Assembly: GCF_003334315.1 (NCBI RefSeq)
Contig: NZ_QOWR01000141.1
Length of the DNA stretch: 237 nt
Direction: 5' to 3' (one strand)
DNA from: Escherichia coli
Lineage (GTDB): Bacteria; Pseudomonadota; Gammaproteobacteria; Enterobacterales; Enterobacteriaceae
Within the stretch, counting starts at the first letter, position 1. Every line of letters begins with the position of its first letter. Positions 1 to 237 of the stretch are shown here, piece by piece. A program made the position numbers and the translations under genes. The notes under the pieces were generated by a model. The model did not search any database, was not told the DNA's origin, and was given only the letters and a program-made list of their open reading frames with translations.

Positions 1-19
1 TGATAGAAACAGAAGCCAC
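1..19 (-). CDS. insA: IS1 InsA (transposition regulator and N-terminal part of the InsAB' frameshift transposase); first 6 codons only, CDS continues beyond the window
   Basis: GTG start at 19-17 on the minus strand, followed by GCT TCT GTT TCT ATC, i.e. (M)ASVSI, matching the InsA N-terminus MASVSISC. The start is 56 nt from the IS1 terminus, consistent with the known insA position in IS1. Only 19 nt lie in the window. Confidence 0.72.
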
Positions 20-26
20 TGGAGCA

Positions 27-45
27 CCTCAAAAACACCATCATA
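27..45 (-). promoter_or_regulatory. insA translation-initiation region: Shine-Dalgarno GAGG (30-27) and a candidate -10-like hexamer TATGAT (45-40) of the IRL-associated insA promoter
   Basis: GAGG lies 7 nt upstream of the GTG start, which is good spacing. TATGAT sits about 20 nt upstream of the start region. The insA promoter is known to overlap the IRL, but exact -35/-10 assignment here is my reading and not verified; no convincing -35 is seen at 17-bp spacing. Confidence 0.4.
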
Positions 46-51
46 CACTAA

Positions 52-74
52 ATCAGTAAGTTGGCATCATCACC
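52..74 (-). repeat. IS1 terminal inverted repeat (IRL, about 23 bp); InsA-binding end of the element
   Basis: The minus strand reads GGTGATGATGCCAACTTACTGAT, against the canonical IS1 IRL GGTGATGCTGCCAACTTACTGAT (22 of 23 matching). IS1 ends are established binding sites for InsA and carry an IHF site; I cannot place those precisely from sequence alone. Confidence 0.85.
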
Positions 75-237
75 GAATCTATATACTGAACCGGATTCAG
101 CGGATACTGATAAAAATTCCATCCCCCCTTCAGCCCAATCGGATCCTGAGTGATATACCTCCCCTGCAGCGGGTCATAATAGCGGTGGCGGTTGTAATAC
201 AGGCCGGACTCCTCATCATACTGCTGCCCCGGCAGGC
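53..237 (-). CDS. Rhs-family (YD-repeat) core protein, 3' end of the conserved core domain; ORF interrupted by IS1 at 74/75 and terminated inside it (probable truncated gene or pseudogene lacking its C-terminal toxin domain). 5' end lies beyond the window.
   Basis: Minus-strand frame starting at 235 translates without stops to [53 protein letters not shown], then S-VMMPTY and TGA at 55-53. The first 53 residues match the strongly conserved Rhs core C-terminal region ([10 protein letters not shown]...[11 protein letters not shown]...YQYPLNP) as I recall it from enterobacterial Rhs proteins. The other two minus-strand frames contain early stops. Codons 55-60 and the stop are IS1 sequence. Confidence 0.85.

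Follow-up and report, generated by a model that had tools for sequence, protein, structure and literature searches.

A minority base at position 8 of the IS1 left inverted repeat, carried by an IS1 copy in an orphan Rhs fragment of Escherichia coli and shared with an IS1B-like sub-lineage

Introduction

Identical terminal inverted repeats are common to the insertion sequence isoforms IS1A to IS1E (PMC12903888). InsA and InsAB' bind both IS1 ends (PMC12428005, PMC12903888), the weak promoter PIS1 partially overlaps the left inverted repeat (IRL) (PMC12428005, PMC12903888), and the target duplication left by the element is 8 or 9 bp (PMC12428005). The IS1B and IS1C copies of strain K-12 have been reported to be almost immobile (PMC12428005). 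Natural isoforms of the IS1F type carry altered inverted repeats with fewer mismatches between IRL and the right inverted repeat (IRR) (PMC12903888), and they are approximately 9–10% divergent over the whole element (69–73 differences; PMC12428005).

The DNA studied here (the window, meaning the whole 237-nt stretch that was analyzed) joins an IS1 left end to an orphan Rhs fragment, and its IRL departs from the canonical sequence at a single base, IS1 nt 8, where C is replaced by A. This base is a minority but well-established polymorphism of a very well known element, ordinary in kind and previously sequenced; the variant is already known from public sequence and matters little. It is convenient as a lineage marker with which one IS1 sub-family can be followed across the chromosomes and plasmids of E. 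coli and Salmonella, and it offers a natural test case for whether the symmetry of IRL and IRR tunes IS1 activity. The IS1-Rhs junction adds one more IS1 insertion into an orphan Rhs toxin cassette.

Results and Discussion

The IS1 left end and its variant base

The following features were assigned to the IS1 part of the window.

Positions 1 to 74, minus strand: IS1 left end (IS1 nt 1–74, with nt 1 at window position 74), by comparison with K-12 and the variant copies described below.
Positions 52 to 74, minus strand: 23-bp left terminal inverted repeat, IRL, GGTGATGATGCCAACTTACTGAT, by alignment with the K-12 IRL and IRR.
Position 67, minus strand: variant base, IS1 nt 8 = A (canonical C; T on the plus strand), the same allele as in copies L003 to L014.

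Window positions 63–74 read ggcatcatcacc (reverse complement GGTGATGATGCC), and the minus strand, read from position 74 to position 1, begins GGTGATGATGCCAACTTACTGATTTAGTGTATGATGG. All four annotated copies of K-12 MG1655 (IS1A, IS1B, IS1C and IS1E) have the IRL GGTGATGCTGCCAACTTACTGAT, which the terminal 23-bp imperfect inverted repeat of the window matches at 22 of 23 positions, as expected of a member of the IS1 family. Over the entire IS1 part, identity was 73/74 to K-12 IS1A and IS1B, with nt 8 as the sole mismatch, and 74/74 to variant IS1 copies from other genomes; IS1C was likewise the same as the first 74 nt of the window except at nt 8. A first-pass annotation of this DNA, made from the letters alone, had given GGTGATGCTGCC as the canonical terminus and proposed a single-base change within the IRL at window position 67 (T; IS1 nt 8 C>A). 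The K-12 alignment confirmed the change, and the canonical terminus had been given correctly, being carried by IS1A, IS1B, IS1C and IS1E of MG1655 alike.

The junction with the Rhs fragment

An Rhs core ends in the boundary motif PxxxxD(P/S)xGL, beyond which lie a variable toxin tip and an immunity gene. Translation of the window gave the following features.

Positions 75 to 237, minus strand: terminal (3') part of the coding region of an orphan Rhs core, which breaks off within the boundary motif PVQYIDS/MGL (the slash marks the break).
Positions 53 to 73, minus strand: six IS1-encoded codons and a stop, VMMPTY-stop, by which the truncated Rhs ORF is extended in frame.
Positions 1 to 19, minus strand: start of insA, with GTG at IS1 nt 56, which is window position 19 (VASVSI...).

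The IS1 end lies inside the core/toxin boundary motif, and the toxin tip has thus been removed. In the native sequence past the junction, PVQYIDSMGLASKYG, the protein continues as SMGLASKYG; the intact allele has MGL and a variable tip followed by ybfC, so that the boundary motif of an Rhs core is present. Annotations place the orphan, N-terminally truncated rhs fragment after rhsC-ybfB and before ybfC, and RefSeq describes the segment as "RHS repeat-associated core domain-containing protein", a pseudogene without its N-terminus. The insertion has no evident consequence, since the fragment was already a promoterless, N-terminally truncated pseudogene. Within the tail that IS1 adds to the ORF, the canonical end reads GTG ATG CTG CCA ACT TAC TGA, and the variant base turns residue 3 from L to M.

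The whole 237-nt window was matched at 99.6%, with one mismatch each, in 2014EL-1343-2, PEC1003, SW071610 and BDSF8-3. All four genomes have C at IS1 nt 8; the mismatch is therefore the variant base, which leaves the 163 nt of rhs sequence without a difference. The exact IS1-Rhs junction was searched for with each nt-8 allele and found in none of three collections, namely complete E. coli genomes, GTDB species representatives and JGI metagenome contigs. An Rfam scan of the window returned only two sub-threshold chance matches to archaeal snoRNA models, which were rejected.

The first IS1 base completes a Ser codon of the Rhs ORF, which is TCG here and TCA in the native sequence. The insA GTG, which corresponds to the RefSeq start of the IS1 transposase CDS 55 nt into the element in L003 to L012, is in the same frame as the truncated Rhs ORF with three stop codons between them; the shared frame is most likely a coincidence.

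Frequency of the variant terminus

Among complete E. coli genomes, the 50-nt terminus with A at nt 8 was the perfect best match in 363 of 9,301 IS1-bearing records and the canonical 50-mer with C at nt 8 was perfect in 8,205 of 9,303 E. coli records, which corresponds to about 4% and about 88% of IS1-bearing records, each record being counted by its best place only and not by every IS1 copy. Perfect copies of the variant terminus were likewise carried by at least 97 plasmids from E. coli, Salmonella enterica and E. fergusonii. When GTDB species-representative genomes were scanned for the exact variant 30-mer, 0 matches resulted; the allele thus occurs in no representative genome, though it is frequent in E. 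coli strains and plasmids outside that set. A full-text literature search with the 12-mer GGTGATGATGCC returned unrelated qPCR primers only, and the literature found under IS1 isoform names consisted of plasmid-annotation papers that held nothing about nt 8. The first-pass annotation had held that an identical terminus in an ISfinder isoform would make the change an ordinary isoform signature, and in substance such a terminus recurs throughout these records and plasmids.

Variant copies at other sites

Twelve variant copies (L003 to L014), at 11 different sites, were examined.

Interval solA-yceJ of ETEC H10407.
Adjoining cof in ATCC 8739 (L004).
dgcP.
traE of an E. coli plasmid, with the identical insertion on a Salmonella Derby IncI plasmid.
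gatB.
A NapC/NirT cytochrome gene.
nrfA.
yrhA (L012).
A MobH relaxase gene.
Adjoining blaTEM-1 on a small plasmid.
An IncHI1A/IncN Salmonella plasmid, the copy being truncated by IS26.

Perfect 9-bp direct duplications, the signature of IS1 transposition, were found at 6 of the 11 sites (GTCATTCAC, CTGCTTATT, CTGGTGTCG, CTGTTGCAG, CAAACGGAT and CAGTTCGTT), which demonstrates that ends with A at nt 8 have been used repeatedly by the transposase. Strain ZJ3920 carried the identical variant IS1 on a plasmid (in traE) and in the chromosome (in gatB).

Seven of the twelve copies (L003, L004, L008, L009, L011, L012 and L014) were one identical 768-bp sequence, in which the insA and insB' reading frames are uninterrupted and the A6C frameshift site lies at nt 307; the RefSeq product name for variant copies is "IS1-like element IS1B family transposase" (WP_095033700.1). 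Full variant copies agreed with K-12 IS1B in their length of 768 bp, IRR, InsA F81, A6C at nt 307 and 9-bp duplications, and differed from K-12 IS1B/C at three positions: besides nt 8, they lacked the two changes specific to K-12 IS1B/C, C>T at nt 127 and T>A at nt 704 (InsB' L>Q). Compared with IS1A/IS1E of K-12 ("consensus" IS1), the IRR and, apart from nt 8, the IRL were the same, and the common variant sequence departed from them at 8 nt of its 768 bp. The variant lineage does not belong with the IS1F-like elements; in ATCC 8739, the IS1F-like copy carries A, not G, at nt 4 of its IRL and shows 69 differences. Because most sampled copies share one IS1B-like 768-bp sequence, the nt-8 base marks a sub-lineage, and the proposal in the first-pass annotation that it marks a particular IS1 isoform largely holds in this form. 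The same A was also present on other backbones, namely in L005 and L007, with two differences each, and in L010, an IS1A-like mosaic, which is consistent with exchange by recombination between IS1 copies or with the mutation having recurred occasionally.

The traE insertion with the duplication CTGCTTATT was found on the Salmonella Derby plasmid pSa64-96 as well (L008 1001-1768; L009 901-1668; L014 901-1668). This distribution suggests that conjugative plasmids carry the nt-8 A allele between genera. In ATCC 8739 (L004 224-1768), an IS1F-like copy and the variant copy lie head to tail, 9 bp apart (CTATGCAAC), neither being flanked by its own matching duplication. The possibility that the yrhA copy (L012) was the K-12 IS1E insertion with one changed base was rejected, as the sites and duplications differ.

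The IS1B-like variant lineage with InsA F81 (L003 1001-1768, compared with K-12 IS1B, L016 664-1431) has moved to many sites. Besides nt 8, K-12 IS1B/C differ from this mobile lineage only by the synonymous nt 127 and by nt 704 T>A. Judging from this comparison of sequences, InsB' L>Q, rather than L81F, may be what cripples the K-12 IS1B/C copies.

End symmetry and the promoter-like site

Canonical IRL and IRR differ at 5 of 23 positions (4, 8, 9, 10 and 19). The IRR has A at position 8, and the variant IRL therefore shows 4 mismatches to it in 23 positions (19 matched), compared with 5 (18 matched) for the canonical IRL. As the IRR naturally has A at this position, A is already accepted by the DNA-binding domain of InsA/InsAB'.

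A consensus scan also placed the variant base in a promoter-like site.

Positions 40 to 67, minus strand: promoter-like site with a -35-like ATGCCA (67 to 62), a 16-nt spacer and a -10-like TATGAT (45 to 40), 9/12 matches to the consensus.

The site sits where the weak PIS1 is expected, and its -35-like hexamer begins with the variant base. The consensus has T there, which neither C nor A equals, so that the -35-like match is unchanged and the score is 9/12 with either base. A motif that we take to be IHF-like (consensus WATCAANNNNTTR) lies at window positions 51–63, outside the variant base.

The best-supported reading of these comparisons is that A at nt 8 is neutral or nearly neutral, both in end recognition and in its effect on the weak IRL promoter. 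The first-pass annotation had further suggested that the change could affect end recognition; the many sites occupied, six of them with perfect duplications, and the A of the canonical IRR do not support this. Its interpretation thus stood as to the IRL, the C>A change and the mark of a sub-lineage, and found no support as to altered or impaired recognition of the end.

Origin and effect of the variant base

The window very probably holds the left end of a copy from a widespread, transposition-competent IS1B-like sub-lineage, with the base inherited from the donor and neutral or nearly so. The donor would have been an IS1 copy of this minor but widespread group (IS1B-like backbone, A at IRL nt 8), and the element derived from it would have inserted at the core/toxin boundary of the orphan Rhs fragment next to rhsC, where the DNA is richer in AT, most likely bringing the A with it. 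A simple insertion would leave TATAGATTC and then AATGGGACTGG after the right end of IS1, which lies outside the window, and a member of the sub-lineage is predicted to have C at nt 127, G at nt 256 and T at nt 704. The polymorphism would be nearly neutral for the reason that it falls at a position where natural IRL and IRR already differ. Strain 2014EL-1343-2, whose rhs segment is identical to that of the window, has a variant IS1 elsewhere in its chromosome, and a suitable donor thus exists in close relatives.

Two other explanations were weighed against donor inheritance of a near-neutral base. The A might be private to this copy, having arisen in it once inserted, by point mutation or by gene conversion from another IS1 end, or as a sequencing or assembly error, without relation to the widespread lineage. 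Because the junction is absent from the collections searched, the base at this locus is supported by a single sequence; every canonical IS1 copy inserted close by in related strains reads C at nt 8, and the presence of the allele on more than one backbone (L010, L005 and L007) indicates that it has recombined or arisen more than once. Such a private event is nevertheless very improbable, given the same base at nt 8 in the hundreds of E. coli records and numerous plasmids counted above and the variant copy in a strain with the identical rhs segment, and given that inheritance from a donor requires no extra event. Sequence comparison thus points to inheritance rather than mutation in situ for this copy.

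The base might, on the other hand, be functional and measurably alter IS1 behavior, through increased transposition or through a change in InsA repression or in the strength of the IRL promoter. It lies within the inverted repeat bound by InsA/InsAB' and within the promoter-like site (PMC12428005, PMC12903888), the nt-8 A lineage has clearly spread, and fewer IRL/IRR mismatches, of which nt-8 A removes one, have been proposed to lie behind the higher mobility of IS1F (PMC12903888). Against this, a share of about 4% versus about 88% for the canonical end shows no sign of a sweep and, being low, gives no hint of an advantage; the -35 consensus score is the same with C or A; no binding, promoter or transposition assay, nor any other experiment, on IS1 nt 8 was found in the literature examined; and the IS1F mismatch hypothesis is untested according to its own authors (PMC12903888). 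A functional effect is accordingly considered unlikely. The more specific version, in which nt-8 A is a natural activity-tuning variant that with one IRL/IRR mismatch fewer gives, for example, a modest rise in transposition, is regarded as rather improbable; such a rise would accord with the published, untested hypothesis that more symmetric IS1 ends are more mobile, and nt-8 A would then not be a neutral marker. Inheritance of a near-neutral base from a donor copy is preferred over both.

Other IS1 insertions near the Rhs core end

IS1 prefers AT-rich targets. The Rhs core end of the window is one at which other strains also carry IS1 insertions.

Within about 600 bp downstream of the Rhs core end, in different E. 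coli strains: at least six other IS1 insertions (L001 2672; L002 2935; L018 2014; L019 2189; L020 2266; L021 2000).

Independent canonical IS1 copies in the same orientation were located 8, 271, 350, 525 and 602 bp downstream of the junction, each of the five with its own perfect 9-bp duplication and with C at nt 8, and a divergent IS1 was found at +337 bp in the same rhs region. The shared orientation of the nearby copies is an ascertainment effect, since the search joins pieces on the same strand only. The junction might have been formed by an IS1-mediated adjacent deletion from a nearby canonical copy, such as the one in 2014EL-1343-2; this origin was not supported and is weakened by the neighboring copies, which are simple insertions with their own duplications and C at nt 8.

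An IS1 left end lay no more than about 600 bp from this core end in 145 genomes in total. The 600 nt preceding the junction have a GC content of 55% and the 600 nt following it one of 41%, a drop that fits the preference of IS1 for AT-rich DNA together with relaxed selection on a silent cassette. The region looks like an IS1-prone and probably selectively neutral orphan toxin/immunity cassette.
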